Source: Alkanindiges illinoisensis DSM 15370 (GTDB lineage: Bacteria > Pseudomonadota > Gammaproteobacteria > Pseudomonadales > Moraxellaceae). Taken from it: a stretch of DNA of 32,000 nt. Location: contig NZ_JHUX01000003.1 in NCBI RefSeq assembly GCF_000619845.1, positions 580,064-612,063 on the forward strand, given 5' to 3'. Below, piece by piece: positions 7,776 to 29,630 of this stretch. Below the pieces are notes generated by a model. That model was not told where the DNA came from and made no database searches. It was given only the letters and a program-made list of their open reading frames with translations. The stretch's first letter is position 1, and each line of letters starts with the position of its first letter. Position numbers and translations under genes: made by a program.

Positions 7776-8011
7776 TGGCCGGAGCGACCGCAGCAGTAGA
7801 GCTTATTGAATTTGATTGTAGTGCTTTTGGCCCTGAGCAAGTCACTGTAACGCTGCCCATAGTAAATATTAACCCTTATGACAATGTTTCTGATGATTGC
7901 ACCATCACAGTTGGGGGCGTTGAGCTGGTGATGGATATCAGTACTGCTTTGGAAATGACCTATCGCCTGTGTGATGCATTAGAAATTGAATATCTGGAGC
8001 CAAAAGAATGA
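7775..8011 (+). CDS. Hypothetical protein
   Basis: TAATG-coupled 78-aa acidic ORF. Confidence 0.5.
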   Translation: MAGATAAVELIEFDCSAFGPEQVTVTLPIVNINPYDNVSDDCTITVGGVELVMDISTALEMTYRLCDALEIEYLEPKE

Positions 8012-8853
8012 ATACCATTGAAAGTATTATTAGCATGATCGAATCAGAAGCAAAAGAAGCCATTCGCACTACTGGCGAAAATTACATACCGCCATTTAAA
8101 ACCAAAGATGAAGGGCTACAGGCGTTAGAAAAGGCAAAGTTATCAATAGGTCCACCATTAGAGTGGCCTGCCGACTGGCCAACAGATGCGCATTTTTACC
8201 GTATAAATATCAATACACCCATTTTCTATAAATATCAGCACGGCCAGATCAAACGCTGGGTTAAATACGCAAAGTGCTGGGTAGATTCCTGTATTCCTGA
8301 CTGGGCTGCGTTCTGTGAGCAAAATGGAGTAAAGAGTTTAATAAAATGGCCTTCTATTGCCGAAATGCTGTCAGTACGTGGTCTACGCAATGACGCGGAT
8401 TACATGACGCTCATTCATGGTGAATGGCCTGCATGTGATGCTAAAGAAAAGGATGAAAGTATTAAGCATGGAACAGAAACGGCTTACAGATATGGATGCC
8501 GTTGCGAGATATGTATAAATGCCCACAATCAGCAAACAATAAATTTTCAAAAAAAGGCCAGGAACCATTTTGCTGAAACAGGTGAATTTCTATCTACCAA
8601 AACTAAGCACGGTACTTATAGTTCGTATGTAAACTACGGCTGCCGCTGTGAGCTTTGCACCGAGGCTAACCGTAAACAGAATAAAAAAACTCTAAATAAG
8701 ATAAGAACGGGCTATAGCAAGACAGGCCGTTTTCCTAAGGCTGATCAGCATGGCACCAAGTACGGCTACTCAATAGGTTGTCGCTGTGAAGCTTGTTCTA
8801 AAGCTTATGCTGACTATCAAAAAAAACGTAGAGCGACAAAGAAAAATGGCTAA
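8008..8853 (+). CDS. Hypothetical protein with three tandem HGT-x3-Y-x2-GCRC-x2-C modules
   Basis: The C-terminal half contains KHGTETAYRYGCRCEICINAHNQ, KHGTYSSYVNYGCRCELCTEANRK and QHGTKYGYSIGCRCEACSKAYADY, each followed by a Lys/Arg-rich tail. ATGA-coupled start. Confidence 0.65.
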   Translation: MNTIESIISMIESEAKEAIRTTGENYIPPFKTKDEGLQALEKAKLSIGPPLEWPADWPTDAHFYRININTPIFYKYQHGQIKRWVKYAKCWVDSCIPDWAAFCEQNGVKSLIKWPSIAEMLSVRGLRNDADYMTLIHGEWPACDAKEKDESIKHGTETAYRYGCRCEICINAHNQQTINFQKKARNHFAETGEFLSTKTKHGTYSSYVNYGCRCELCTEANRKQNKKTLNKIRTGYSKTGRFPKADQHGTKYGYSIGCRCEACSKAYADYQKKRRATKKNG

Positions 8854-8862
8854 TTTTTATAA

Positions 8863-8882
8863 TGGAACCAACCAGAATGGCT
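8863..8882 (+). promoter_or_regulatory. Conserved intergenic motif, copy 1 (TGGAACCAACCAGAATGGCT)
   Basis: Starts 10 nt after the stop at 8853 and about 75 nt before the next gene. Shares TGGAACC-N2-CC with seven other intergenic copies. Confidence 0.35.
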
Positions 8883-8939
8883 CGCCAAAACATCCGTTAT
8901 ACATCAAAGCTGACACAAATCTAATTAAGTGGAACTTTG

Positions 8940-9641
8940 ATGAAAAATAATCGTGCGCGTCGTGACTGGACAAATTTTTTTAATACGGGGAAAAATTCAA
9001 AGGCACCAATGGTTGACTGGGATACTAAAAAAACCCAGCGACCAGCCCGCGAAAAGCGTGCATTGGAACCACGTAAAACCATTCCAACCTTTAGACGGGC
9101 AACCCTGCTTACTGAAAAACAGGGTGATGACATTGTGCATAAAGCCAATACCGGTGCACAAATGATTATTGGGGATGGCTTTGTGACTGTGAAGTTGCCG
9201 TATGGCATCAGTGCCAATGATATCTGGCGTGCCACGCTCACTGAAGAGGGTAAGCAGCGTAACAGCCTGTCACTGGGTGCCAAACACTATAAGCAGGACG
9301 TCAACAGCATGTATGCCCCGTTATTGCGGGCGCTGGACTGGAAAGCCATATCAAGGCCCTGTGAGATCAGGCTTATTGTGCAGCCACCAGCTAAAACCCG
9401 TAACTACAGCGCTGCGTCTTATCCCCGCTTTGATATCGATAACTATCCAAAGCTATTGATTGATGCACTGAAAGGAATAGACCTGCTTTATAAGGATGAC
9501 AATTTATTTGTGAGTGAAAAAATTGAACTGGCAGAACCCATTGAAGGGGGTTGTGTCTGGCTGTCATGTGTCTTTATTGAACAAACCAACTGGCTGAAAA
9601 AACCAGTGGACTTTGAATGGTTGGCAGGGAGAGTCGCATAA
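8940..9641 (+). CDS. rusA: RusA-family Holliday-junction resolvase with a basic N-terminal extension
   Basis: The C-terminal 159 aa (from MIIGDGFVTVKLPYGISANDIW...) carries the RusA core ...RFDIDNYPKLLIDALKGIDLLYKDDNLFV... (D-x-DN...K...DAL...DD). The track ORF starts at TTG 8937 and the first ATG is 8940. A RusA-sized product would start at ATG 9162, which has no obvious SD. Confidence 0.75.
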   Translation: MKNNRARRDWTNFFNTGKNSKAPMVDWDTKKTQRPAREKRALEPRKTIPTFRRATLLTEKQGDDIVHKANTGAQMIIGDGFVTVKLPYGISANDIWRATLTEEGKQRNSLSLGAKHYKQDVNSMYAPLLRALDWKAISRPCEIRLIVQPPAKTRNYSAASYPRFDIDNYPKLLIDALKGIDLLYKDDNLFVSEKIELAEPIEGGCVWLSCVFIEQTNWLKKPVDFEWLAGRVA

Positions 9642-9643
9642 TT

Positions 9644-10354
9644 ATGGCAAAGAAATTTGATGTACAACGTAGGCTGATGATCGGGCGTAAGTTTGCTTTA
9701 GCCCGTGATATGGCTGGCCTCAAGCAAGAAGAGGTGATGGTTAAAATCTTTGGGGCCAGTGGTGGACAAAAGAACCGGATCAGTGAGATCGAAAACGGTA
9801 AGACCATGCCTGATGCAGAGTTGTTTCAGGTGTTGTGTGAGCTTTATGTGGTATCTGCCGACTGGATTCTGGGTTTTACCGTAGAGCCGGAAATGGATAA
9901 AACCACGGCAACCGCTGGTATTTTATATAATAGTTTAGGAGATATGCTGACCGAATTTACTCAAGCTGCTACGGCACAAATCACAATGGCCTGCGCACGT
10001 CATATTACCTCGTTTCCCAAGGCTGACTCTGTAGTCTTACTGGAACAGGCCAAAGTACTGGTAAAAGCCTGTGGTAGTCTTAGTAGAGAGGCTTATGAAC
10101 AGATTCAGCCTGCATTAATCGGTGTCATGGAAAGTATTCGTAATTGTGACCAGAAAAATGCATTACAAATACGAAATCTGGAAATAGCCCTTGATGACGT
10201 GTACCAGCGTGAGGAAGCGGAACTACATCAAAAAATGCTGATGGATTTGGTGCTTAACCGTACTAAACGATATCCATCCACATCATTACCCAAGGCTGAT
10301 GAACCCGAAGTGCCTCAAATTGGTTTAGATTTATTTGCTGAAGAGAAGGCATAG
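9644..10354 (+). CDS. XRE-family HTH transcriptional regulator (late-regulator position)
   Basis: I place the start at ATG 9644 (MAKKFDVQRRLMIGRKFALARDMAGLKQEEV...ISEIENGKTMPDAELFQVLCELY), a typical XRE HTH. GGGAGAG lies upstream. It follows rusA, where lambdoid phages carry their late regulator. Confidence 0.7.
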   Translation: MAKKFDVQRRLMIGRKFALARDMAGLKQEEVMVKIFGASGGQKNRISEIENGKTMPDAELFQVLCELYVVSADWILGFTVEPEMDKTTATAGILYNSLGDMLTEFTQAATAQITMACARHITSFPKADSVVLLEQAKVLVKACGSLSREAYEQIQPALIGVMESIRNCDQKNALQIRNLEIALDDVYQREEAELHQKMLMDLVLNRTKRYPSTSLPKADEPEVPQIGLDLFAEEKA

Positions 10355-10362
10355 GCGGTGAT

Positions 10363-11229
10363 ATGGCAAAAATTGAGTATCCTGCCGAAGTCTGGGCACG
10401 ATTGCGCGAGGTCTGGGAAACCTCGCCCAAGATTACATGGGACAATCTCGTTAAGCAGGTCGGTGAAGAACTGGCCTGCGATATGCCGTCTGGCTCCGTA
10501 GTACGCCGCAAGTCACTGACTGAAAAATGGAAGAAACGGGCAAAGGGATTAGTCAAAAAGAACGCCCGTGAACTCAATAAAGAGATTAAAAAACTGACCA
10601 GTGATTTGACTAGTCAAAATGATGGTCATGAAGAATCACAAGACGCTGATATAGAACCAGAAACTGATGGTCAAGAACCTGTCAAAAATCAGTCAGAAAT
10701 CGTCGTAAGAAATGGTCAAAATCGGCAAAGTTATCAGGAAAAAACCAACACGCCAGTAAGTCAGCTTACTGCGGCCCTGATCATTAAGAAAAACCGTGCG
10801 CGCCTGGCTGATTTGGGTGATCTAGCAGGCGATACTATCACCAGTGTTATTCATATCCGGGATGAGGTTATAAACCTTGATCTTGAGGGGCTAGATGAAG
10901 CGGCGACAGAGTTAGCACTTAACAAAATCAAATTTAAGATGGGCCTGATTAACCAGGTGGTTGAGCTGAACATGAAGCAAAGTATCACGCTCAGCAATAT
11001 TGCCAAGGCAGAATCCATATTCTGGGGCTTGGAGCTTGAGGACCTAAAAGACCAGTCCGAAGTGCAGGCACGCCGTACAGCGGTTATTGATGACTCAGAG
11101 GCTAAACTGGCTGCTGCCAAGAAACAAATGGCACTCAAGAAGAAAGAGGCCTTTAGGCGTAAGCTGGCGATCATTGAGGCAGGGGATTACGACCCTGAAA
11201 ATGATGTGCCTGAGGAAGATGTGGCTTAA
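10363..11229 (+). CDS. Hypothetical protein: N-terminal HTH-like region, acidic linker, C-terminal coiled coil
   Basis: 288-aa ORF. The N-terminus YPAEVWARLREVWETSPKITWDNLVKQVG...VVRRKSLTEKWKKR resembles small-terminase or regulator DNA-binding heads, but the gene is about 9 kb from terL. Confidence 0.6.
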   Translation: MAKIEYPAEVWARLREVWETSPKITWDNLVKQVGEELACDMPSGSVVRRKSLTEKWKKRAKGLVKKNARELNKEIKKLTSDLTSQNDGHEESQDADIEPETDGQEPVKNQSEIVVRNGQNRQSYQEKTNTPVSQLTAALIIKKNRARLADLGDLAGDTITSVIHIRDEVINLDLEGLDEAATELALNKIKFKMGLINQVVELNMKQSITLSNIAKAESIFWGLELEDLKDQSEVQARRTAVIDDSEAKLAAAKKQMALKKKEAFRRKLAIIEAGDYDPENDVPEEDVA

Positions 11230-11234
11230 GTCAG

Positions 11235-11261
11235 TTGATTTAAAATAAGACAATGTATAGT
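11235..11261 (+). promoter_or_regulatory. Candidate sigma70-type promoter for the AT-rich membrane-protein gene
   Basis: TTGATT (11235-11240), then a 15-nt spacer (short), then TATAGT (11256-11261). Confidence 0.3.
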
Positions 11262-11272
11262 GTTTTATCTTT

Positions 11273-11280
11273 GGGGGGGG
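11273..11280 (+). repeat. Homopolymeric G8 tract immediately upstream of ATG 11287
   Basis: Read directly as ttGGGGGGGGaatccgATG. It doubles as the only SD-like element for the gene. Confidence 0.9.
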
Positions 11281-11286
11281 AATCCG

Positions 11287-12051
11287 ATGTTCAAAGATAA
11301 AACACTGGCTGAAAATGTAAGCGCTCTTTTAATAATTTATATCGTAATTTTAGGCTTAAGCTATTGCCTGTATTTTGCACTAGTTAAAGTTGGAATGCCT
11401 ACAGATGATTTTGTTGATATATCCGTTTGTGCATCTACATTGCTGGGGCCAATCATCTTACTATTCACTTTGACCGCATGGAAAGAACAGCATAATAAAT
11501 CGGTTTTAAAAGATATATCATTTGAAGGCATTAAAGACTTACTCACCATTAAAAATAGCCTAGACCTAATAAGACTTGCCAAAGATAGAATCTTTATTAC
11601 CCATGGCATTGAAGGCATTTTTCATCAGGATATTGAATTAATTTATCAAAACCATATTAAAGCTCAATCTGCCTCGTTGGATTTTCAATCAAAAATAGAA
11701 ATTTTTAAAATCTATAATATTTTTGATAAAGATATTAAGGACTTTGATTTGTTAATCAATGAATGCTTAATGGAGATTGAAGTGTTAATAATGGATATAA
11801 ATGCTTTGAATGCAACCTATGCCGAAAAAAAAGCTATGATTCATAAATATGAATCTCGATATAATCTTTTAACAACACGGGAGTTAACGTATCTGGATGT
11901 GTTAAAAGAGGATATCCAAAACTATGAAGGTACAGACATTGATGACCAGATTGAAAATTATCGAAATAATAAGTTTGAGGATGGTTTAAGTGAACTAAAA
12001 GATGTGATTGATGGATATATTCAACTTATTTCCAAGGTCACTGTGGCCTAA
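11287..12051 (+). CDS. Hypothetical 2-TM membrane protein with a helical cytoplasmic domain (accessory/moron gene)
   Basis: ATG 11287 is preferred over the track GTG at 11260. Two hydrophobic helices (LLIIYIVILGLSYCLYFALV and CASTLLGPIILLFTLTAW) precede a long K/E/D/I/N-rich helical region. The gene is very AT-rich compared with its neighbours. Confidence 0.65.
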   Translation: MFKDKTLAENVSALLIIYIVILGLSYCLYFALVKVGMPTDDFVDISVCASTLLGPIILLFTLTAWKEQHNKSVLKDISFEGIKDLLTIKNSLDLIRLAKDRIFITHGIEGIFHQDIELIYQNHIKAQSASLDFQSKIEIFKIYNIFDKDIKDFDLLINECLMEIEVLIMDINALNATYAEKKAMIHKYESRYNLLTTRELTYLDVLKEDIQNYEGTDIDDQIENYRNNKFEDGLSELKDVIDGYIQLISKVTVA

Positions 12052-12054
12052 TCC

Positions 12055-12753
12055 CTACCACTCATACTGGCCATTATCGAGCTTGTGAAAAATTTCCTGT
12101 GTGTTGATAAAGGCTACTTGTGAGGGATGGCAATTATTGACCTTTGCAGCCTGTATCGCCAGATTCATTGTGGTGTTATAGGCGTTGCTATGTTGTTTTA
12201 AGTCATCCAGCATTTTGGGAATGTATTCAAGCCGGTTGTCAGTTTTCTCAATGTATCTGCCAGTAACCTGGTAGATATGGGAAATTAGATAATCAGGGGT
12301 AAAGCGCGGTGTTTCGTCCAGCCAGTCCACAGCGGCGTCATACACTGTTTCTGATTGGGTAGCCAGTTCATTCACCAGCATCTGACAAAGTGACCGCATC
12401 ATCCAGCCGGATTCATTTTTTCTAAAATTATAATCCTCACAATAACAATAAATGATGTGTAGCTGACTAATAAACAGTGGAAACAGAATATCCACGGCAT
12501 AGGTAATTTTCTCAATCATGACAGTGCTGTTTTCAACCACGGGCTGCTGTTTTTTATAGACAATCCGTTTACCTTGGGCGGCCTGCTGCACTTCATAGAC
12601 TAAGCCCCATCCAAACGCGATATCAGGACTATCTTTGCCATTGTTATTTTCAGGTAGGATATCGTATGCAGCATCACATAATGCCATTAGCTCATCACTG
12701 GTGCCGGAAACCCGAACGCCTAAGTTATTTGGGGTCAATGAAAGCAACAGCAT
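12055..12753 (-). CDS. Hypothetical protein; the only complete - strand gene in the window (accessory/moron gene)
   Basis: 232-aa ORF with a strong reverse-strand GAGGA RBS 7 nt before its ATG. It converges on gene 11287-12051 with only 3 nt between the stop codons. No family recognised. Confidence 0.7.
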   Translation of the reverse strand: MLLLSLTPNNLGVRVSGTSDELMALCDAAYDILPENNNGKDSPDIAFGWGLVYEVQQAAQGKRIVYKKQQPVVENSTVMIEKITYAVDILFPLFISQLHIIYCYCEDYNFRKNESGWMMRSLCQMLVNELATQSETVYDAAVDWLDETPRFTPDYLISHIYQVTGRYIEKTDNRLEYIPKMLDDLKQHSNAYNTTMNLAIQAAKVNNCHPSQVAFINTQEIFHKLDNGQYEW

Positions 12754-12781
12754 TGTCTATCCTCAATTTTTTCAAGAGAAT

Positions 12782-12811
12782 ATATTAATCTGACCGGAAC
12801 TGCCATGTCTG
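12782..12811 (-). promoter_or_regulatory. Candidate sigma70-type promoter for the - strand gene
   Basis: On the reverse strand: CAGACA (12811-12806), 18-nt spacer, TAATAT (12787-12782), about 30 nt upstream of the ATG. Confidence 0.3.
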
Positions 12812-12834
12812 GATGCTTTATTGATTCAGGCACT

Positions 12835-12860
12835 ATTACCCTATGTTGAAATAGGGTAAT
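12835..12860 (+). promoter_or_regulatory. Perfect 10-bp inverted repeat ATTACCCTAT-N6-ATAGGGTAAT covering the RBS of gene 12865
   Basis: Read directly. The right arm contains the only purine-rich SD-like sequence (AGGG), and the repeat ends 5 nt before ATG 12865. Confidence 0.6.
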
Positions 12861-12864
12861 ACTC

Positions 12865-15276
12865 ATGCAAAACAATCAATCAGCCAGCGGCCTACAGTAC
12901 GATGATTTAGGTTTTATTATTGGCATGAAGCGCATGGGGCGTGATATCGATAAGATTGATATCAACGTCGAAGCCATACGCAAAATACTGGAACAGGCTG
13001 CTACAGAATTTAAAGCGATTGCTGGCCAGTCTGAGCGCCAGCAGCCCTCACTAAGTGCCTATCAGCGTGCTTTACTGGATGCCACACAACGTACGGCAGT
13101 TGATTTTGAGGAACACCTTCAACGCACCATCACACCCGTTAATCAATCATTGGTTGATATGGGTAATGCCACTGAAGAATTAATAAACCTGGTTGATCAG
13201 GTGGCAAGCCAGCAGACCAGTCCTAAGCAGGCCAATAACCGCAGTACTGCAAATAATTCGGGCAATAGACCCGGACGCAGCCGTATTACGCCAAACAGCG
13301 ACACGGTTGACATCGGTAGTACAGAATCGCTAAGACGTAACTTTAGCCGCCAGAATGCAGATAATGCACCAGGTGATGATGCAACCAGTGACCGTAGCCG
13401 TGATTCACGGGGCCGCTTTACTGGTGATGGTTCTGGTGATGGCCAGAAATCATTTTTTGCAAAAGTTGCCAAAGGGTTTGTTGGTGCAATTAAAGGGTTA
13501 ATGCCTGATTCAAAAGGGGTGGACCCGACTGTTGATGCCATTAACGAGCTGGGCACATTGTTATCACCTGTGCGCAAGGTGGCTGGCTTTGCCTTACGTC
13601 CACTATCCGGGCTATTCAAAAGCCGTAAACGCAATGAGCCTATTCCACGAGAACAGGAACAACATAACCGACGCCAGATTAAGCTATTACAGCGTATTGC
13701 CGACAATCTGAAAGGTACACGGGCAGGCAAGCTGCTGGGCGGCGCTGGCGGCCTGCTAGGTGGGTTGTTCGGTGGTGCTGGTAAAGGCTTGGGCAAGCTG
13801 CTTAAGGGTGGTGGCAAAGGCCTGCTAAAACTGTTGAAGTTTGGCCGTGGTATTCCACTGGTAGGTACCGCGCTGGCCGCCGGTGCTTCGCTGTTTGACT
13901 GGAAAAATCAAACCACTGAACAAAAGGGCGGTAGTGTGGGTTCGCTGGCTGGTGGTGCAGCTGGTGCGGCCTTAGGTAGCCTGCTGGGGCCAGTCGGTAC
14001 TATTGCCGGTGGTATGCTGGGTTCATGGGCTGGCGAGAAGCTGGGTACTGTGGTTGCACCATACGTCAAGAACTGGACGGATGATCTGACTAAGGCTGAT
14101 ATACCAGGTCGCATTGTTTCAGCGTGGAAAACCTTTACTGATGGCTTGGGTACATACTTTAAGGAAGCCTGGGACAATATTGTTGAGAAAGGCAAAGAGA
14201 TTGCCAGTGATACCAAGGATACTGTCTTTTCAATTGCAGACTGGAGCGCATCACTTCTTGATAAAGGTCTGGCTGGTATGGGTAGTAAGGATGCTCAAGA
14301 ACGGGTAAATCAGCGTGAACGTGGCGAGATTGGCTACCAGCGTAAGGGATATCAGGCCAAGACGACACAGAATGCGCCTACGCTTTGGCAAACGATGCAG
14401 GACAGCGCTAATAGTTTGATGATGCAGCCAGCTACCGGAAAATACGCGCCATTACTGGATGAAATTGCCCGAGGGGAGTCACGCAAAGGGGCGTTTGGTA
14501 CATCAGGCTATGATGCTGTTTATAGTGGTGCCACGGTTAAGCCGTCAAAGCCAATTTCACAAATGACTGTAGGCGAAGTAAAAGCCTATCAACGGCAATT
14601 AATGAAAGCCGGTTCTACATCCACTGCAGTGGGCCGCTATCAGTTTATCCATAACAAAGGTGCTTTTGCCAAGATGGCCGCCGAGGCTGGTTTAAAGGAT
14701 AGCGATATTTTTAATAATGCTGCCCAAGATAGGCTTGCCATTCATTATATGGGTGGGGCACAACAAATAGATAAGTGGATTAAAACCGGCAACCATAAGG
14801 CTTTAACTAATAAGGTTGCTGAGCAATGGGCCAGCCAGAAAAACAGTAGAGGCTTTGGGAACTATGATGGTGATGGGTTAAATACAGCCCGGCATGGCGG
14901 CGTTGCAGTCATTCGTGACCTTAGTGAGAAAATTGCAACAAATCAGGCCACTGTTCCGCAAACTAAGGCAACTGAAATCAAGCCTGCGCAAATACCAAAA
15001 GCGACCAAGCCCATTATTACCAAAGATTCCCCTGTTTATGTCTGGCGTAAACCGGTTGAGGCAAAGGCTACTCGTTCAACCACTACAACAAATCTGGCGA
15101 CTCAGCAGGCCAGCGCTGCTCCTAAAGTTGAGTCAGTCAAAGAGCGCTTATCATCACCAGCACCTAAGGAAGTGGTTGTGGTTAATCAAAATAATGATAC
15201 GATTAGCCAAAACGTGAGCAATAGGGGCCTTGCTCATGCATTTACTGGTGGGTTAGGGATGGGGAAGCATGATTAA
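12865..15276 (+). CDS. Large virion-associated / tape-measure-like protein with glycine-zipper membrane region and C-terminal lambda-R (GH104)-like lytic transglycosylase domain
   Basis: 803 aa. The middle region GKLLGGAGGLLGGLFGGAGKGLGKLLKGGGKG...GGSVGSLAGGAAGAALGSLLGPVGTIAGGMLGSWAG forms glycine zippers. The C-terminal part ...IARGESRKGAFGTSGYDAVYSG...STAVGRYQFI...LKDSDIFNNAAQDRLA parallels lambda R (...LAWSEGT...GYDVIVGG...STGAGRYQLL...LKDFSPKSQD...) as I remember it. Confidence 0.7.
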   Translation: MQNNQSASGLQYDDLGFIIGMKRMGRDIDKIDINVEAIRKILEQAATEFKAIAGQSERQQPSLSAYQRALLDATQRTAVDFEEHLQRTITPVNQSLVDMGNATEELINLVDQVASQQTSPKQANNRSTANNSGNRPGRSRITPNSDTVDIGSTESLRRNFSRQNADNAPGDDATSDRSRDSRGRFTGDGSGDGQKSFFAKVAKGFVGAIKGLMPDSKGVDPTVDAINELGTLLSPVRKVAGFALRPLSGLFKSRKRNEPIPREQEQHNRRQIKLLQRIADNLKGTRAGKLLGGAGGLLGGLFGGAGKGLGKLLKGGGKGLLKLLKFGRGIPLVGTALAAGASLFDWKNQTTEQKGGSVGSLAGGAAGAALGSLLGPVGTIAGGMLGSWAGEKLGTVVAPYVKNWTDDLTKADIPGRIVSAWKTFTDGLGTYFKEAWDNIVEKGKEIASDTKDTVFSIADWSASLLDKGLAGMGSKDAQERVNQRERGEIGYQRKGYQAKTTQNAPTLWQTMQDSANSLMMQPATGKYAPLLDEIARGESRKGAFGTSGYDAVYSGATVKPSKPISQMTVGEVKAYQRQLMKAGSTSTAVGRYQFIHNKGAFAKMAAEAGLKDSDIFNNAAQDRLAIHYMGGAQQIDKWIKTGNHKALTNKVAEQWASQKNSRGFGNYDGDGLNTARHGGVAVIRDLSEKIATNQATVPQTKATEIKPAQIPKATKPIITKDSPVYVWRKPVEAKATRSTTTTNLATQQASAAPKVESVKERLSSPAPKEVVVVNQNNDTISQNVSNRGLAHAFTGGLGMGKHD

Positions 15277-15739
15277 TACTAAAACAGTGATTTACGGTGT
15301 TTTACTTAGCAGTGTGAGTATATTGGCTCATGCTGATAATAATGTTCCACAGTTTAAGGACTATCCAGCCAAGGTATACAACGGTAAACCCGCTAAATTA
15401 TTATTGAATAATCAAACTGCAAAAGTATTTAAAACACGTTTGACCGAGGCATTAAAACAAAAACCTGTCTATGCAGGCGAATATGTTTTAGCGTCTTGGG
15501 GGTGTGGCACAGAGTGTGTATTTTATACCTTCGTCAACAAAAGAACGGGCCAAGTACTTGATAAAGGTTTTGGTGGTGAAACCGGCGAAGATATTAAGGA
15601 TTTTAAGTTAAACAGTAAGCTGTTAATCACTCGTAAATCAGACTTTGATGATAATTATAATGAGGTTGGCAGTTCTACAAATTATAGTGTCGTGAATAAT
15701 GATCAGTTTAAAGTGATTAAAGCGGTAGCATCGGAATAA
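15269..15739 (+). CDS. Secreted (periplasmic) hypothetical protein
   Basis: Sec-type signal peptide MINTKTVIYGVLLSSVSILAHA/DNN. The mature part has a WGCGTEC pair of cysteines. The start overlaps the upstream stop. Confidence 0.65.
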   Translation: MINTKTVIYGVLLSSVSILAHADNNVPQFKDYPAKVYNGKPAKLLLNNQTAKVFKTRLTEALKQKPVYAGEYVLASWGCGTECVFYTFVNKRTGQVLDKGFGGETGEDIKDFKLNSKLLITRKSDFDDNYNEVGSSTNYSVVNNDQFKVIKAVASE

Positions 15740-16452
15740 TGAATAAAAAAGTAATAATTATAACTGCCCTGATTATTGGTCTGGCAGCTTTAATCGGTGG
15801 ATATCTTTATTTTATTTATACTCAGTCCTCACAGAAGGCAAATCATCAAGAAATACTCCATACGGATGACACTGGTAGTCAGGCTGTACGTGAAACAGTC
15901 CCACAGCAAAGTGAAAATACTACACCTGATGAGTCTACAGTAAGCGAAGATTGGCAAGCCGTTCATACCGAAGAAAGCTTTATGAATACTGGTATTGCCT
16001 ACTTAAATCATAATGAGATTTTTCGCGGATTAATGTTCGGGGATTTAGAGAAAAATGCCCAAATTAAGGGAGTAGGCTTTGTTAATCAGATTTTTAAGCA
16101 AGATGGATATGATGTTGCCCTAATCAACTTGTTAAAAGACTCTGATAAAGACAAATGCAGTATTTCTTTTAATGGCTTGTCAGATAATTATGCTTTGATT
16201 GCCTTTCAGCACTCCCCTAGGGTTTTAGAAGGTGATGTAATCGCCTTTAAGGGAATGGCCGACAATATAAAGTTCTCATATAAAAATGCATCAAACATTT
16301 CAAAAGAAGTGCCGGTTATTTATGTGGCTTATTACAAGGGTGGGGCTAACCTACCAGGCCTTGAACTTGAGTTTTATACGTGTGGAACCATGTTTGGCAA
16401 GCCAGCCTCTCAAGAAGATGTAAGCCGTTTTTTAGAGAAAAATAAGTTATAA
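15739..16452 (+). CDS. Membrane-anchored hypothetical protein
   Basis: TAATG-coupled. N-terminal anchor KKVIIITALIIGLAALIGGYLYFIY, followed by a polar linker and a globular domain. Confidence 0.65.
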   Translation: MNKKVIIITALIIGLAALIGGYLYFIYTQSSQKANHQEILHTDDTGSQAVRETVPQQSENTTPDESTVSEDWQAVHTEESFMNTGIAYLNHNEIFRGLMFGDLEKNAQIKGVGFVNQIFKQDGYDVALINLLKDSDKDKCSISFNGLSDNYALIAFQHSPRVLEGDVIAFKGMADNIKFSYKNASNISKEVPVIYVAYYKGGANLPGLELEFYTCGTMFGKPASQEDVSRFLEKNKL

Positions 16453-16461
16453 CTAAACAAT

Positions 16462-16481
16462 TGGAACCTACCAGATTTAGC
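16462..16481 (+). promoter_or_regulatory. Conserved intergenic motif, copy 2 (TGGAACCTACCAGATTTAGC)
   Basis: Starts 10 nt after the stop at 16452 and 72 nt before ATG 16534. Full-consensus copy. Confidence 0.4.
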
Positions 16482-16533
16482 CAGACCTTAGATTGATACC
16501 GTGTTTGCTCAAATTTTGATTGAGTGATGCAAT

Positions 16534-17352
16534 ATGAGTTTAAATGATCTGGTTTTCTGGTTGGGCTTCATTATTGGTATTGCCCTTGTATTAATTTGCA
16601 CAGGGATTTTGCGCTATCTCAAGCCAAGTCGTACTTATGATAAACCGCCTTTTGTGCTTGAAACTTTCCCTATGCCTTCATACAGTCCATTAGAAGCACT
16701 ACGCGAAGATATCCGTAAATTGCATGGGAAATTTGATGAATTATTTAAGCCTTATGTGACCGGTTGTGAAAAATATAAACCAGGCTTAGAAGAGCTTTCT
16801 AGGAAGTGGGCAAAGCCGGAAGTTAAACCCAGTATTGTCCCTCAGACTGATTTAAAAACATCACTGGCCAAGGCTGGTTTAGATAAGCTAACACCCGTAG
16901 CAAAAACGAAAATTGCGGATCTGGATGGTGAAACCATTTATGAGGATGCAGACGGCCGCCGGGTATTGTCCCCAACTTCTGTTGAGATCAGTGGCGAGAA
17001 ATACAAGCTTTTAGCAGGCCGTACCTATATGGTTGATGTTAATGAGCTGCGTACCATTGATATTGAATTCCAGGCTGGCAACCCGGCAGTTAATGGGGTA
17101 AATGGCCTAACCAATGAATTGCTGCTGGCCATTCTTATTGATCGTACGAAGGTGCTGGATAGTGAGCAGCCTTGTGATGAAAACAAGCTGGCCTTGGATT
17201 ATATGCAGTCTGCGCTTGAGTGTTTTCAGGAACGTATAAAGGTCCAGAAACATAAGCCTATTGATAATAGCGATTTGAACGAGTTGCTTGAGCAGGCAAT
17301 AGACTTATGTAAATCTAATGATGAGATGAAAAAAGAATCAAATCAACATTGA
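16534..17352 (+). CDS. Type II membrane-anchored hypothetical protein (i-spanin-like topology only)
   Basis: N-terminal TM LVFWLGFIIGIALVLICTGIL, followed by a 240-aa largely helical, charged domain. Confidence 0.65.
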   Translation: MSLNDLVFWLGFIIGIALVLICTGILRYLKPSRTYDKPPFVLETFPMPSYSPLEALREDIRKLHGKFDELFKPYVTGCEKYKPGLEELSRKWAKPEVKPSIVPQTDLKTSLAKAGLDKLTPVAKTKIADLDGETIYEDADGRRVLSPTSVEISGEKYKLLAGRTYMVDVNELRTIDIEFQAGNPAVNGVNGLTNELLLAILIDRTKVLDSEQPCDENKLALDYMQSALECFQERIKVQKHKPIDNSDLNELLEQAIDLCKSNDEMKKESNQH

Positions 17353-20358: not shown

Positions 20359-22350
20359 ATGGCGTTAAAACCCCTAAAAGACATACCTGAATGGTGGGAG
20401 CTGTGTGTACGCTACCGCTATGACATTTATGCTTTCGCGGTTGAGGCGCTGGGCATTACGCCCACATGGCAACAAGAACTACTATTTGAATCTGTCCAGT
20501 TTGATGGTAGCCGTACATCGGTTGCGTCAGGTCACGGCTGTTTTGGTAAAGGCACCAAAATCCGGCTGTTTAACGGCAAATGGAAGCGCGTTGAAAAAAT
20601 AACAATAGATGATCAGATCATGGGTAGCGATGGGATATCGCCCCGTGAGATCACCCATGTTGTGCGCGGCCAGCAGGAACTGTACCGCTTTAATTATGCC
20701 AATGGCGTCAGTCACGTTTATAACCGGTCACATATTTTGTGCCTGGTGTCGCTAGAAACAAAGAACGGCTGGAAAGCTGGCGACAAAATGGAAGTGCTAG
20801 TGTCCAAATGGCTCACATGGCCGGAAGATACCAAGCGCCAGTTTGCGGCCTACCAACTCAAGCATAAAAAATATCAGCCTGTTGCCATCACCAGTGCCAC
20901 GGCCTTAGGCGTAGGGGATTACTACGGCTTCGTGCTGGACGGTGACGCCACGTTTCTAGGCGCTGATGGCATGCTGCTACACAACACCGGTAAAACCGCC
21001 AGTGCGGGCATTGTGGCGCTCTGGCACCTACTGTTCTTTGATGAATCCATCATGATGTTTACTGCCCCGCAAATCGGGCAGCTGAAAAAACAAGTCTGGA
21101 AAGAAATCAGTATCAACCTGAGCCGCCTTAAAAGCGGCCCTTTGGCATGGCTGGCAGAATATGTCGGCTATCAGACTGAAATGGTCTACGTTAAAGGCTA
21201 TAAGGAAAAATGGCACGTCTTTGCCAAAACCGCACCGAAGCACCAGCCAACCAACTTGGCGGGGAACCATGGCGATAACTACATGGTGTGGGGTGATGAG
21301 GCCAGCGGTATTCCAGATGAAGTCTGGGACGTGGTACTGGGTGCATTAACGCATGCCGACAACCGGGCGGTGATGACATCACAGCCGACCCGTAACGCTG
21401 GCATGTTCTATGAAACACACCATGGCTTAAGTCACCGCTCAGACGGTATATGGATGGCGCTGACCTTTAATGGTGAAGAGTCGCCGCTTGTATCTGAGCA
21501 ATCCCTTGAAGAGCAGCGCCAGAAATACGGCAGCCGTGATGATGCCCAGTACAAAATTCGTGTGCTCGGTGAATTTCCTGATTTAGCCGATGAATTTTTG
21601 ATTACCAAGCGTATGTCAGAAGATATGTACGTTGGTAGCTCAATTTTTGAAGAGATTCACCAGTTTGGCTATGTGATTACCGTAGACGTCGGCGGCGGCG
21701 TGGGTCGGGATGATTCGGTTATTTGTGTGGGCAAGGTCTGGGGTGAAGATCAGTGGGGCGAGCGGGCAAGGCGGGTTGAAGTTGAAAAAATCCCGCTGTG
21801 TAAAAACAAGGACAATATTACTGAACTGTTTGGCATTATTAGTGAGCTGCTGGAAAATTATTCCAATGCTTTACTTGTGGTCGATGATAACGGCGCAGGT
21901 AAGGGTCTTGGCCAGTTGTTGCAACAGCATGGCATCTATTATTTGCCTGTGTATTGGGGCGGTGGCTGCTTTAACGAGGATAACCGCAAAGAGTATTACA
22001 ACAAGCGGGCGCTGGCCTATGTGTGCCTAAAACGTGCCATTGAGCATGGCCGATTCAAGATTAAAACCAACAAGTACAAAGTAAAGCTGCAAAACCAGAT
22101 TATTAAAATTCCCTATGGCTTTGATGAGCATTCACGCTACAAGCTGCTGGGTAAGGATGAAATGAAGCGTAAGGGTATCAAGTCGCCGGATATGGGCGAC
22201 GCGCTGGCGTTTTTCTTTCTTGAGAATGTGCATTACACCGAAGCGTACGAGAAAGCCGCGCTGGATGTGGATACACCAGAAGGACAGGAACAGGCCGCTA
22301 AAGCATCACGTTTTGAGCGATTAAGGCAGGCCGCACAAGAGCAATTATAA
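20359..22350 (+). CDS. terL: Terminase large subunit, interrupted by a mini-intein in the Walker A loop
   Basis: The exteins read ...SVASGHG/TGKTASAGIVALW..., which restores the Walker A GHGTGKT. Walker B is YMVWGDEASGI. The C-terminal part is nuclease-like (VITVDVGGGVGRDDSV...). Confidence 0.9.
   Translation: MALKPLKDIPEWWELCVRYRYDIYAFAVEALGITPTWQQELLFESVQFDGSRTSVASGHGCFGKGTKIRLFNGKWKRVEKITIDDQIMGSDGISPREITHVVRGQQELYRFNYANGVSHVYNRSHILCLVSLETKNGWKAGDKMEVLVSKWLTWPEDTKRQFAAYQLKHKKYQPVAITSATALGVGDYYGFVLDGDATFLGADGMLLHNTGKTASAGIVALWHLLFFDESIMMFTAPQIGQLKKQVWKEISINLSRLKSGPLAWLAEYVGYQTEMVYVKGYKEKWHVFAKTAPKHQPTNLAGNHGDNYMVWGDEASGIPDEVWDVVLGALTHADNRAVMTSQPTRNAGMFYETHHGLSHRSDGIWMALTFNGEESPLVSEQSLEEQRQKYGSRDDAQYKIRVLGEFPDLADEFLITKRMSEDMYVGSSIFEEIHQFGYVITVDVGGGVGRDDSVICVGKVWGEDQWGERARRVEVEKIPLCKNKDNITELFGIISELLENYSNALLVVDDNGAGKGLGQLLQQHGIYYLPVYWGGGCFNEDNRKEYYNKRALAYVCLKRAIEHGRFKIKTNKYKVKLQNQIIKIPYGFDEHSRYKLLGKDEMKRKGIKSPDMGDALAFFFLENVHYTEAYEKAALDVDTPEGQEQAAKASRFERLRQAAQEQL
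20539..20985 (+). mobile_element. 149-aa mini-intein (Hint domain, no homing-endonuclease domain) inside terL
   Basis: Starts at Cys61 (TGT 20539-20541) with block A CFGKGTKIRLFNG. Ends ...DYYGFVLDGDATFLGADGMLLHN (blocks F/G, Asn209 = 20983-20985), followed by Thr as the +1 nucleophile. Confidence 0.85.
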
Positions 22351-22386: not shown

Positions 22387-22415
22387 TTTACAATCAATCA
22401 GATTTTAAGGTAAAT
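22387..22415 (+). promoter_or_regulatory. Candidate sigma70-type promoter for the TIR/Macro island
   Basis: TTTACA (22387-22392), 17-nt spacer, GTAAAT (22410-22415), in the AT-rich gap after the terL stop. Confidence 0.35.
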
Positions 22416-22432
22416 TGGTCTATAAATCTTTA

Positions 22433-23008
22433 ATGGACATAAGTATGGAATATGGACTGAGAACCCACAACTATTGTGCGTTTTATGTGGCTGAACCTTT
22501 TAACCCTTGCGCGTTAGGGGCATTCGCTACACATGATTTCTGTCATTATCAGATGTTAAAAGCATGGAAAGGAAAGGATACCACTTTCCCCTTCAGCGAT
22601 GCTCATGCTGCAACATATAGTGTGCGAGATAGTAGTGATTGGGAATCTACGCTCAAGCCTAGACTACGAAACAGACTACGCTTATCTAAAAATATTATCT
22701 TATTTTTGAGTGACTTTACTGGTAATTCAAGAGCTTTAAGAGAAGAGATTGACTATGGAATAAATACTCTAGGTCTACCCGTTATCATAATTTATCCTGA
22801 ATTTGATAATATTGATAAAATTGTTGATAAGAATAATACTTTTAGATTAGCTGTGAAAAACTTATGGGCAAAATTACCAATTCTTAGAGATTCAATGCAT
22901 AAAGTACCAACATTACATTTACCTATGAAGAAAGAAACTATTAAAGATGGATTAAGTAATAGAATGTTTATGATTAACTCTAAAGGCTCACCTGCAAAAT
23001 ATATTTAA
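22433..23008 (+). CDS. thsB: TIR-like (DUF1863/ThsB-like) protein
   Basis: ...YCAFYVAEPFNP...FPFSDAHAATYSVRDSSDWESTLKPRLRNRLRLSKNIILFLSDFTGNSRALREEIDYGINTLGLPVIIIYPEF... follows the ThsB/DUF1863 pattern (beta-strand start, RD.S.WE..LK, SK..I.L.S..T..S....EI with a conserved Glu, then ..PVI). The track ORF starts at TTG 22415; ATGs at 22433 and 22445 are alternative starts. Very AT-rich. Confidence 0.6.
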   Translation: MDISMEYGLRTHNYCAFYVAEPFNPCALGAFATHDFCHYQMLKAWKGKDTTFPFSDAHAATYSVRDSSDWESTLKPRLRNRLRLSKNIILFLSDFTGNSRALREEIDYGINTLGLPVIIIYPEFDNIDKIVDKNNTFRLAVKNLWAKLPILRDSMHKVPTLHLPMKKETIKDGLSNRMFMINSKGSPAKYI

Positions 23009-23019
23009 GAAGTTCACTT

Positions 23020-23859
23020 ATGGAAAATAAAGTTAAATTTTACGATAAAAAATTAATTGACGAGTTTTTGGTAAGAATTAGTACGATAAGTACGATTTTA
23101 TCCTTGGTGCTTATATTTATTTCAATTCCTGAGCAAATTAAAATTGCTTTTGGTGGAATATTTATTTTAGTTTTAATATTTATATATCAAAGAAGCTGGA
23201 GGGAAGCTAATGCTTTAAAAGATATTACTGTAAAAATTGATGAAAGTGATGTTAATATTAAAGTTGGTGATCTATTTAAAGAACCTGATTATAAAGTTAT
23301 AAGTTTTAATGAATATTTTGATACAGTAGTTGATGAGGTCTTAGTTAATGAGAGGTCTATTAATGGTATCTTTCTTAAAGAACATATAAGAATATCAATA
23401 GATGAATTAGATAATAAAATCAAAAATTATCCATTTGAGCAAAACGAAATAATTGGTAGTAATCAAAACCGTCCTTATGGAAAGAAAACTAAATATAAAA
23501 TCGGAACGATATTTGTTTTTGAGGATTATATTTTAACCGCTTTTTCAAAGTTTGATGAGCATAATAGAGCTTACCTAACGATGCCTGAATACCTTGAATT
23601 TTTAATAAATTTCTGGGATAAGGTTAATAAGGTATATGCACAAAAAAGTGTATCAGTACCTATATTTGGTTCTGGTATTACACGAATTAAGGAACATAAA
23701 AACATAAGTGATGAGGAATTACTTAAGATTATGATCTGGACTTTTAAAATTAGTGAAATGCGCTTTAAGTATCCTGCTAAGTTGTCCATAATTATTCATA
23801 ATGCAAAAATTAATCAAATTAATTTATTGGAAATCAAAAACACTGCAAATAGTCTTTAG
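23020..23859 (+). CDS. thsA: 2-TM protein with C-terminal Macro-like domain (type II ThsA-like effector)
   Basis: Two N-terminal TM helices (ISTISTILSLVLIFISI and IAFGGIFILVLIFIY). They are followed by NIKVGDLFKEPDYKVISFNEYFDT...SINGIF... and ...VSVPIFGSGITRI..., which parallel the Macro-domain motifs (GDIt..vDaIVNaaN...; ia.PligtGi.g). Starts 11 nt after the TIR-like gene. Confidence 0.5.
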   Translation: MENKVKFYDKKLIDEFLVRISTISTILSLVLIFISIPEQIKIAFGGIFILVLIFIYQRSWREANALKDITVKIDESDVNIKVGDLFKEPDYKVISFNEYFDTVVDEVLVNERSINGIFLKEHIRISIDELDNKIKNYPFEQNEIIGSNQNRPYGKKTKYKIGTIFVFEDYILTAFSKFDEHNRAYLTMPEYLEFLINFWDKVNKVYAQKSVSVPIFGSGITRIKEHKNISDEELLKIMIWTFKISEMRFKYPAKLSIIIHNAKINQINLLEIKNTANSL

Positions 23860-29283: not shown

Positions 29284-29630
29284 GACCTAGCTATAAAGAT
29301 GCAACACCGGAACAGCTTGCCAAAATCTGCAATGGTGTCGGGCCATCATGGGCACCCGCACCGATACGCAAAGCCATGACTATGCTGTCAGACTGGTTTT
29401 TTAATTCTGCCAGCTGGCAACACCATGACTTTGGCTACTACATTGGGTGCACCGAAGAAGAACGGGCAGAGTATGACCGTAAATTCTTTGAGGCCATGCT
29501 CATTGATTGCCGCCAATTACCCTGGCATAAAAAAGCCAATGGCTACAGCCTCTCATGCTGTTTTTATGCCAGTGTCCGGGTATTTGGCCGTGCCAGTTTT
29601 TACTATGGCCAAGACTATCAGCCGCTATAA
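29259..29630 (+). CDS. Prokaryotic phospholipase A2-like protein (Phospholip_A2_3-like)
   Basis: ...ICNGVGPSWAPAP...SWQHHDFGYYIGCTEEERAEYDRKFFEAMLIDC...SLSCCFYASVRVFG parallels Streptomyces violaceoruber secreted PLA2 as I remember it (...CARHDFGYRNY...IDSAFYEDMKRVC...AWTYYQAVKIFG), including the catalytic HD dyad. Confidence 0.55.
   Translation: MDSSKHTLRPSYKDATPEQLAKICNGVGPSWAPAPIRKAMTMLSDWFFNSASWQHHDFGYYIGCTEEERAEYDRKFFEAMLIDCRQLPWHKKANGYSLSCCFYASVRVFGRASFYYGQDYQPL

Follow-up and report, generated by a model that had tools for sequence, protein, structure and literature searches.

Background

Cargo genes at moron or defense hotspots are a well-known kind of element in temperate phages. 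Juhala and Hendrix in 2000 are said to have described the morons of lambdoid phages and HK97, and Rousset in 2022 reportedly described the hotspots of P2 and P4. Here we examine a stretch of 32,000 nucleotides (nt) from Alkanindiges illinoisensis DSM 15370 (contig NZ_JHUX01000003.1, positions 580,064 to 612,063; referred to in its entirety as the window), in which a gene for a 254-residue protein with two transmembrane (TM) helices, the 2-TM gene (11287 to 12051, plus strand), converges on a gene for a 232-residue protein of the Pfam family DUF6904 (12055 to 12753, minus strand). Both lie between two conserved phage genes, in an interval hereafter called the slot, which resembles the described hotspots in being a fixed site for unrelated, often AT-rich, and often reverse-oriented cargo. 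The likeness extends to the known systems found in the slot of relatives, to a promoter-like element in the cassette that carries the 2-TM gene, and to a Thoeris system at a second site of the same phage. The locus differs in that no terminator follows either gene and in that both occupants match no known defense family.

Prophage-type membrane proteins of exclusion or abortive infection include Imm of T4, gp15 of HK97, SieB of lambda and P22, and RexB of lambda. Like them, the 2-TM protein is a small accessory prophage protein, dispensable for the phage and predicted to reside in the inner membrane with two TM helices, a minimal periplasmic portion, and a tail in the cytoplasm. It differs in having no sequence relationship to these proteins, in being far larger than Imm, and in carrying a variable helical domain of about 190 residues; by sequence it falls outside the SieB- and Imm-type families. 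A further point of reference is IS10/Tn10, in which translation of the transposase from read-through transcripts is subject to fold-back inhibition, as Davis, Simons and Kleckner reportedly described in 1985.

Two occupants of one slot

The slot is bounded on the left by a gene for a 288-residue protein of the early region (10363 to 11229, plus strand; phrog_7533, PHROG match 3.4e-77) and on the right by a gene for an 803-residue protein of the tail-tip lysozyme type (12865 to 15276, plus strand; phrog_6922). Exact-match and homology look-ups yielded a close lineage of eleven contigs (L001 to L004 and L080 to L086), among which L080 has the same sequence as the window throughout 11,455 nt (100% identity). 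An ortholog of the DUF6904 gene (63% to 96% identity) is present in reverse orientation beside the lysozyme gene, which encodes 795 to 807 residues, in all eleven. The space between the 288-residue gene and the DUF6904 gene is variable: it is empty and 3 nt long in L001 and L002, it contains a gene for an acidic helical protein of 71 to 73 residues (G+C 0.35) in L003 and L081 to L086, and it contains the 254-residue 2-TM gene in the window, in L080, and in L004. The DUF6904 gene is found without the 2-TM gene in at least nine contigs (L001, L002, L003, and L081 to L086), and relatives of the 2-TM gene are found without DUF6904 in L077 and L079.

The 2-TM gene is carried on an AT-rich cassette of 822 bp (11230 to 12051, plus strand; G+C 0.31) that is delimited by a 10-bp direct repeat. 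The left copy, TGTGGCTTAA (11220 to 11229, plus strand), is formed by the final codons of the 288-residue gene including its stop, and the right copy, TGTGGCCTAA (12042 to 12051, plus strand), by those of the 2-TM gene, again with the stop. Excision of 11230 to 12051 in silico joins GATGTGGCTTAA to TCCCTACCA, which is the empty junction of L001, and the gene for the 71- to 73-residue protein enters at the same nucleotide as the cassette. This anatomy indicates that the 2-TM gene is a recent insertion of 822 bp placed exactly after the stop codon of the 288-residue gene, with a 10-bp duplication. The INDEPENDENCE of the two genes rests on the census of their contexts and on the direct-repeat anatomy of the insertion, with its exact match to the empty site. 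The comparison of relatives thus shows that the slot has two accessory genes that are independent of each other and were gained on separate occasions, with the DUF6904 gene as the older resident and the 2-TM cassette as the recent arrival.

A preliminary description of this DNA, made from the letters alone, had treated the genes as one island and a convergent pair. The two open reading frames (ORFs) are present as described, with their stops 3 nt apart, and the reverse-oriented one is indeed the sole minus-strand gene of the window, since no other minus-strand ORF of 90 residues or more lies outside longer plus-strand ORFs. The absence of a terminator at the convergent junction was also borne out, both by a pattern scan, which found none, and by folding, which gave no significant hairpin (z -1.5 and +0.6). 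The idea of a single island does not hold, as DUF6904 occurs without the 2-TM gene, distant relatives of the 2-TM gene occur without DUF6904, and the junction pre-dates the 2-TM gene. In L001, the 3-nt convergent junction joins the 288-residue gene to DUF6904; this junction is ancestral and therefore uninformative on any relation of the 2-TM and DUF6904 genes.

The composition of the two genes differs as well. Relative to the window mean of 44.7% G+C (standard deviation 5.3% per 700-bp window; 5th percentile 33.3%), the 2-TM gene is AT-rich, as had been proposed, and falls below the 5th percentile with 30.8%, whereas the minus-strand gene, with 43.1% (z about -0.3), is ordinary for the phage. 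The AT-rich island is thus one gene wide and comprises the plus-strand gene only. As in a moron, the insertion lies between genes that are adjacent in relatives (the 288-residue gene abuts DUF6904 in L001 and L002), and the cassette deviates in composition (0.308 vs. 0.447), which is not the case for DUF6904 (0.431). Promoter-like hexamers were found for both genes, although they are statistically undistinctive, and there are zero terminator-like sites.

Phage setting and contents of the slot in distant relatives

Gene content places the slot at the boundary between early and late genes of a temperate phage related to Acinetobacter phage vB_AbaM_ABMM1, which has been published as a temperate A. 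baumannii myophage (PMC10345192). The genes to the left, identified with PHROG and tblastn, are early genes (Cro, CII, Ant, replication, RusA, a helix-turn-helix (HTH) protein, and the 288-residue gene); in the window, Cro/CII-like regulators are followed by Ant, primosomal and DnaC-like genes, a RusA-like gene, the HTH gene, the 288-residue gene, and the slot. To the right, the 803-residue lysozyme-type gene is followed by tail-fiber-like genes and the gene for the large terminase subunit (TerL; 20359 to 22350), which has 72.8% identity to TerL of vB_AbaM_ABMM1. The ABMM1 homolog of the 803-residue protein is annotated as tail tip lysozyme, and the L001 ortholog matches Phage_lysozyme2. The location of the slot at a module boundary, an expectation of the preliminary description, is borne out by this arrangement. 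Positions 8000 to 17000 of the window have no megablast match among phage records, and Rfam gave zero matches in the window at gathering thresholds.

The same description had suggested a comparison of the site in related prophages, and the outcome is a hypervariable slot. Homologs of the 288-residue protein (55% to 95% identity, 76 loci) served as the anchor for relatives; this anchor retrieved 71 loci from IMG/VR together with ABMM1 at 55% to 60% identity. Across the 72 loci with both anchors, a count that includes the window and L001, the slot ranges from 386 to 6728 bp and contains about 30 unrelated protein clusters. Most of the loci have one soluble protein of 87 to 90 residues, and some have small TM proteins (clusters C5, C6, C7, C26, and C27). 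Known systems are present in others. The slot of L014 (11691 to 15067) contains IetA (1.8e-76) and IetS (2.1e-53), both identified with PADLOC, and a reverse-oriented TM protein of 303 residues; that of L010 (11367 to 15478) contains a C5 DNA methyltransferase, a GHKL ATPase (HATPase_c_3), and a reverse-oriented TM protein of 324 residues. L006 has YoeB (1.5e-41) and Phd/YefM (1.6e-17) on the minus strand, and L012 has a ParA-like ATPase. Reverse-oriented cargo is therefore recurrent, as seen in the toxin-antitoxin pair of L006 and the TM proteins of 303 to 324 residues in L010 and L014. Taken together, these contents show that the slot is a recombination and cargo hotspot of the defense or moron type. 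Literature searches found no description of this hotspot in the ABMM1-like myophage lineage of Moraxellaceae.

Neither DUF6904 nor 2-TM homologs were detected in the ABMM1-type relatives with jackhmmer and hmmsearch over all ORFs (about 1.4 Mb), searches that recovered only the close orthologs already known. Since DUF6904 is absent from the ABMM1-type loci, it is itself accessory at that depth. Proteins of 222 to 231 residues in the slot of six Acinetobacter-type loci were considered as remote DUF6904 homologs and rejected, as hmmsearch gave no signal. These proteins form cluster C2 (L008:10849-11538 and five further loci) and have no Pfam or PADLOC match; their motif ...LLEAKTSRADF... is reminiscent of PD-(D/E)xK nucleases. 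The cargo of L010 and L014 ends in a non-homologous, reverse-oriented multi-TM protein beside the lysozyme gene, mirroring the position and orientation of DUF6904, and the GHKL ATPase of L010 contains a long GTT (collagen-like) repeat.

The 2-TM protein

Kyte-Doolittle hydropathy locates the hydrophobic segments of the 254-residue protein at residues 6 to 33 and 45 to 65 (approximately), in agreement with the two TM helices and long helical domain noted earlier. The loop between the segments is short with a net negative charge, and the C-terminal domain of about 190 residues is acidic and all-helical (23 K/R and 35 D/E). From the charge bias, this domain is predicted to be cytoplasmic and the topology to be N-in/C-in. 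Comparison with the L004 ortholog gave a ratio of nonsynonymous to synonymous substitution rates (dN/dS) of 0.07 for the N-terminal half and 0.32 for the C-terminal half, with 0.08 for the flanking 288-residue gene in the same comparison. The N-terminal halves are about 97% identical (dN 0.034), and dN rises to 0.28 in the C-terminal half.

A phmmer search, run exhaustively over 1.84 billion representatives, recovered nine representatives of the 2-TM family (E <1e-3). The matches cover residues 1 to 90, or 1 to 158 at 27% identity. The members share the N-terminal 80 to 160 residues, including ATLLGPIILxFTLxAWKxQHNK, and do not share the C-terminal domain; the family is very rare and joins a conserved 2-TM module to a cytoplasmic domain that varies among members. 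Two distant members whose context could be read are single genes in mobile surroundings: in L079 the gene lies on a contig of phage-like character, with a CHAP lysin downstream of it, and in L077 it is a lone chromosomal gene beside an insertion sequence (IS) transposase in Acinetobacter sp. HA. The preliminary description had recognized no family for either of the two window proteins, and this stands for the 2-TM protein, which has no match in Pfam, PHROG, PADLOC, NCBIfam, or the Protein Data Bank (PDB), whereas the minus-strand protein belongs to DUF6904. The ten members of the 2-TM family gave no Pfam match, SieB included, at E up to 1, and scans of metagenomes and viral contigs for the family found nothing.

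An inverted repeat at the start of the 2-TM gene

The start of the 2-TM gene lies within a perfect 15-nt inverted repeat, AGTGTTTTATCTTTG / CAAAGATAAAACACT (11259 to 11306, plus strand), found by an inverted-repeat search and RNA folding. Its arms (11259 to 11273 and 11292 to 11306) enclose an 18-nt loop that contains a run of eight G acting as Shine-Dalgarno sequence (G8; 11273 to 11280) together with the start codon at 11287 (ATG). All other perfect inverted repeats in the window are shorter. In total, three with arms of at least 11 nt are present there, compared to 0.27 expected in shuffles; arms of at least 13 nt were found 0 times in 100 shuffles. The cassette also contains a promoter-like element, TTGATT-N15-TATAGT (11235 to 11261, plus strand), read from the sequence and kept in L004, which the pattern scan missed because of its 15-nt spacer. 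Transcription from this element is expected to start at about 11268, and the predicted -10 overlaps the left arm. The read-through 5' RNA of the 2-TM gene folds with -24.7 kcal/mol (z -3.7), whereas a transcript from 11268 retains an 8-bp stem and folds with -10 kcal/mol (z +0.5).

These values raise the possibility of an IS10-type fold-back inhibition. As in IS10, the repeat pairs a segment upstream of the predicted transcription start with the translation-initiation region, and because the pairing segment lies upstream of the gene's own start, only externally initiated transcripts would be able to form the inhibitory hairpin. The case differs from IS10 in that the transcription start is predicted and in that the Shine-Dalgarno sequence and AUG lie in the loop and, in the extended fold, at the end of the stem next to the loop. 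In such a mechanism, the hairpin would keep the 2-TM gene from being translated when transcripts read through from the lytic operon upstream; RNAs started at the cassette's own promoter would have their 5' end within the left arm and would, we propose, therefore stay translatable. Both arms are 100% kept in L004 (15/15 in the non-coding left arm), and the loop differs there at five positions and one indel.

Several observations weigh against this reading. No compensatory changes support the hairpin, the right arm would be conserved in any case as part of the coding sequence, and L077 and L079, the distant members of the family, have no such hairpin. The promoter candidate has a suboptimal spacer of 15 nt, and the repeat may alternatively function as an operator in the DNA or in recombination.

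The G8 run is the sole G or C homopolymer of at least 7 nt in the window and has the same length in L080; in L004 the run is interrupted (GGGAGGGG), and the spacing to the upstream in-frame ATG is off by one nucleotide. Such a run could be a slipped-strand site. A frameshift of the 2-TM gene at the run was considered and rejected, since the supported start is the ATG at 11287, served by the G-run as Shine-Dalgarno sequence, and L004 has GGAGG at the same place.

The DUF6904 gene and its upstream region

The 232-residue protein, whose orthologs occupy the same place and orientation, matches Pfam DUF6904 (PF21845) with 2.2e-17 and a score of 64.1 bits (gathering cut-off 27). The alignment covers nearly the whole profile (residues 4 to 215 of the protein, positions 3 to 228 of 238 in the profile), and the orthologs carry the same precomputed family annotation. 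PF21845 provides a family name and no mechanism, and neither a structure nor literature was found for it; the literature searches for DUF6904, PF21845, and DUF7669, to which the protein has a sub-threshold C-terminal match, returned no papers. The protein is acidic, has no TM segment, and is predicted to be mostly helical and cytoplasmic. Against the available part of the L004 ortholog, dN/dS is 0.08. Since dN/dS ranges from 0.07 to 0.32, the 2-TM and DUF6904 genes are both under purifying selection and functional. DUF6904 was also considered as an exceptionally fast evolver; this was rejected, as its 63% identity to L001 is comparable to the 66% of the neighboring lysozyme in a mosaic genome.

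Searches for relatives of the protein were largely negative. It has no PHROG, PADLOC, or NCBIfam match, tblastn found nothing in 50,697 phage records or 72,556 plasmids, and neither single-sequence nor profile searches recovered a PDB relative. Scans of genome contigs with DUF6904 and with the 288-residue protein confirmed no relative, and scans of metagenomes and viral contigs for DUF6904 found nothing. Cysteine and histidine residues H99, C103, C105, C208, and H209 are invariant among three orthologs (63% identity) and fall in the motifs YCYC(E/D)DY (residues 99-105) and NNCHPSQVAF (206-210). In this weak, three-sequence alignment, they might form a metal site.

A conserved divergent intergenic region of 111 nt (12754 to 12864; about 111 nt across the close lineage) separates the DUF6904 and lysozyme genes and was studied with an 11-locus alignment and a promoter scan. 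It includes the invariant block CGGAACTGCCATG and a ribosome binding site, GAGGA (12759 to 12763), which the preliminary description had noted and which is located 6 nt upstream of the DUF6904 ATG. The candidate promoter claimed for this gene fared less well: the element ATGGCA-16-TATATT (12806 to 12779, minus strand) matches the consensus at 9 of 12 positions, and eight such matches were found here compared to 7.3 expected in shuffles. Its -35 block and a -10-like hexamer keep their positions in the 63%-identical L001. The region also includes a perfect 11-nt inverted repeat, TATTACCCTAT-N6-ATAGGGTAATA (12834 to 12861, plus strand; inverted-repeat search, fold z -4.9), which ends 3 nt before the lysozyme ATG and whose right arm spans the likely Shine-Dalgarno sequence. 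Only its core, CCTAT-N6-ATAGG, is kept in L001 and L003. This repeat could act in translational control or bind a protein that controls the late genes.

Function of the two genes

The explanation that we consider best, and to which we give about an even chance as a whole, is that the slot is a hotspot with two independent occupants, both of them exclusion or defense genes of the lysogen that act singly. We infer that both are lysogen-benefit genes because of their location, orientation, architecture, and the company they keep. The 2-TM and DUF6904 genes would each, alone, act in lysogenic conversion and guard the lysogen against other phages. The 2-TM protein would be an inner-membrane protein of exclusion or abortive infection. 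Its conserved 2-TM module, including the juxtamembrane WKxQHNK motif, would supply the constant part that acts on the membrane, and its cytoplasmic helical domain, which diverges fast, would supply specificity or sensing. The earlier proposal of lysogen-expressed exclusion or abortive-infection cargo is a reasonable guess by location, because the slot of relatives holds IetA/IetS, YoeB/YefM, and a methyltransferase with a GHKL ATPase. A more specific version, in which the 254-residue protein would found a new and very rare family of single-gene membrane proteins of phage exclusion or abortive infection, apparently limited to Moraxellaceae, made of a constant 2-TM effector module with a swappable cytoplasmic sensor domain and expressed only from its own promoter owing to a fold-back hairpin, and in which DUF6904 would be a new stand-alone defense gene, is tentative and on balance doubtful.

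Other findings weigh against the explanation considered best. The defense function of both genes is one that we infer, and homology lends it no support: PADLOC, PHROGs, and NCBIfam give no defense family for either protein. A search of PADLOC-DB v2 at E up to 0.1 found neither of them and detected ThsA/ThsB in the window and IetA/IetS in L014 as controls. By sequence, neither protein has a PDB relative. AlphaFold2 models from alignments of 3 and 7 sequences are unreliable, with predicted local distance difference test (pLDDT) values of 40.6 and 54.0, and Foldseek comparisons to PDB were insignificant (best E 0.25 and 0.4, generic helical bundles) and were discarded. Small proteins without an assigned function dominate the slot in distant relatives, so the cargo is not all defense. 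The promoter calls are consensus matches no commoner than in shuffles. In addition, the contigs of the close lineage were mostly retrieved via DUF6904, so that its constant presence there is biased, with only L004 found independently.

Among the alternatives, it is now very unlikely that the convergent genes form one two-component module (toxin/immunity, toxin-antitoxin, or sensor/effector), perhaps with antisense cross-regulation. The adjacency of the genes, with 3 nt between their stops and no terminator found, their recurrence as a pair in L004 and the window-identical L080, and the combination of a membrane partner with a cytoplasmic one would fit such a module, but the census of relatives has largely refuted it. 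DUF6904 stands at the same site without its neighbor in at least nine contigs, relatives of the 2-TM gene stand alone in L077 and L079, the 2-TM gene is on a separable 822-bp insertion (G+C 0.31 vs. 0.43), and the 3-nt junction was already formed by the 288-residue and DUF6904 genes in L001. Toxin-antitoxin or immunity partners are co-transcribed and constantly co-occur; these genes are convergent, not co-transcribed, and separable. A reading that concerns DUF6904 alone makes it a lineage-specific regulatory or housekeeping gene of the phage, which would affect the switch from early to late genes through its protein or through convergent transcriptional interference with transcripts that read through into the late operon. 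This we regard as unlikely. It would account for the fixed position and orientation in all contigs of the close lineage, the phage-like G+C and strong purifying selection, the divergence in step with the lysozyme (63% vs. 66% identity to L001), the divergent region, in which blocks are invariant and a palindrome marks the start of the lysozyme gene, and the lack of a PADLOC match. It is at odds with the absence of DUF6904 from ABMM1-type relatives that have the same flanks and module order, with the lack of a PHROG family and of any tblastn match in the 50,697 phage records, and with its residence in a slot that holds defense cargo elsewhere.

A component of the lysis module (holin, antiholin, or lysis-timing factor) that works with the adjacent muralytic protein is a distinctly improbable identity for the 2-TM protein. 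Holins are typically shorter than 150 residues and a constant part of the lysis cassette, whereas this protein has 254 residues with a cytoplasmic domain of about 190, and its gene is dispensable, being absent from the otherwise near-identical L001 and L081 to L086. The two TM helices with N-in/C-in topology and the location upstream of the muralytic 803-residue gene would suit a lysis role, as would the small TM proteins (C5, C6, C7, C26, and C27) in the same slot of some relatives and the L079 member upstream of a CHAP lysin; however, the 803-residue neighbor is of the virion tail-tip lysozyme type and not an endolysin, the L077 copy is a lone chromosomal gene by an IS element, and the composition of the gene is foreign. 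Phage hotspots also hold anti-defense genes, and the 2-TM gene reads in the same direction as the lytic operon and immediately follows early genes, so one or both genes might serve counter-defense or host takeover during lytic growth. We consider this quite improbable as well, given that the start hairpin would hinder expression from read-through lytic transcripts, that DUF6904 is transcribed against the lytic operons, and that the known cargo at the orthologous slot is of the defense or addiction type and not anti-defense.

Other loci in the same phage

A complete Thoeris system is present at 22415 to 23859 (plus strand), in a second AT-rich island (G+C 0.26 to 0.34) directly after the large terminase gene and before a tail-fiber-like gene. 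Its components are ThsB (TIR-like; PDLC00421, 2e-66) and ThsA (Macro-domain type; PDLC00413, 1.8e-117).

A second variable spot follows the lysozyme gene (15269 to 16452, plus strand, in the window, corresponding to L001:4642-5633). In the window it has genes for a 156-residue protein with a signal-peptide-like N-terminus and a 237-residue protein with an N-terminal TM segment (36% to 37% G+C), neither of which has a homolog in L001, and the L001 counterpart has an Adhesin_E-like gene for 134 residues and two small genes. The third inverted repeat of the window with arms of at least 11 nt, CTGGCATAAAAA / TTTTTATGCCAG (29522 to 29572; 12-nt arms, 27-nt loop), is located in the late region.

Conclusions

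Prophage hotspots are a productive source of new immune genes. With IetAS, a toxin-antitoxin pair, and a methyltransferase in the slot of relatives and Thoeris in the same phage, the two occupants described here are concrete candidates that can be tested cheaply. Such work would give a first functional handle on DUF6904 and on the nine-cluster 2-TM family, and the hairpin at the start of the 2-TM gene offers a testable case in which a cargo gene may be insulated from read-through of a phage operon. If the genes prove to be neutral, the locus would still be an example, resolved to the nucleotide, of cassette turnover at one site in a phage.

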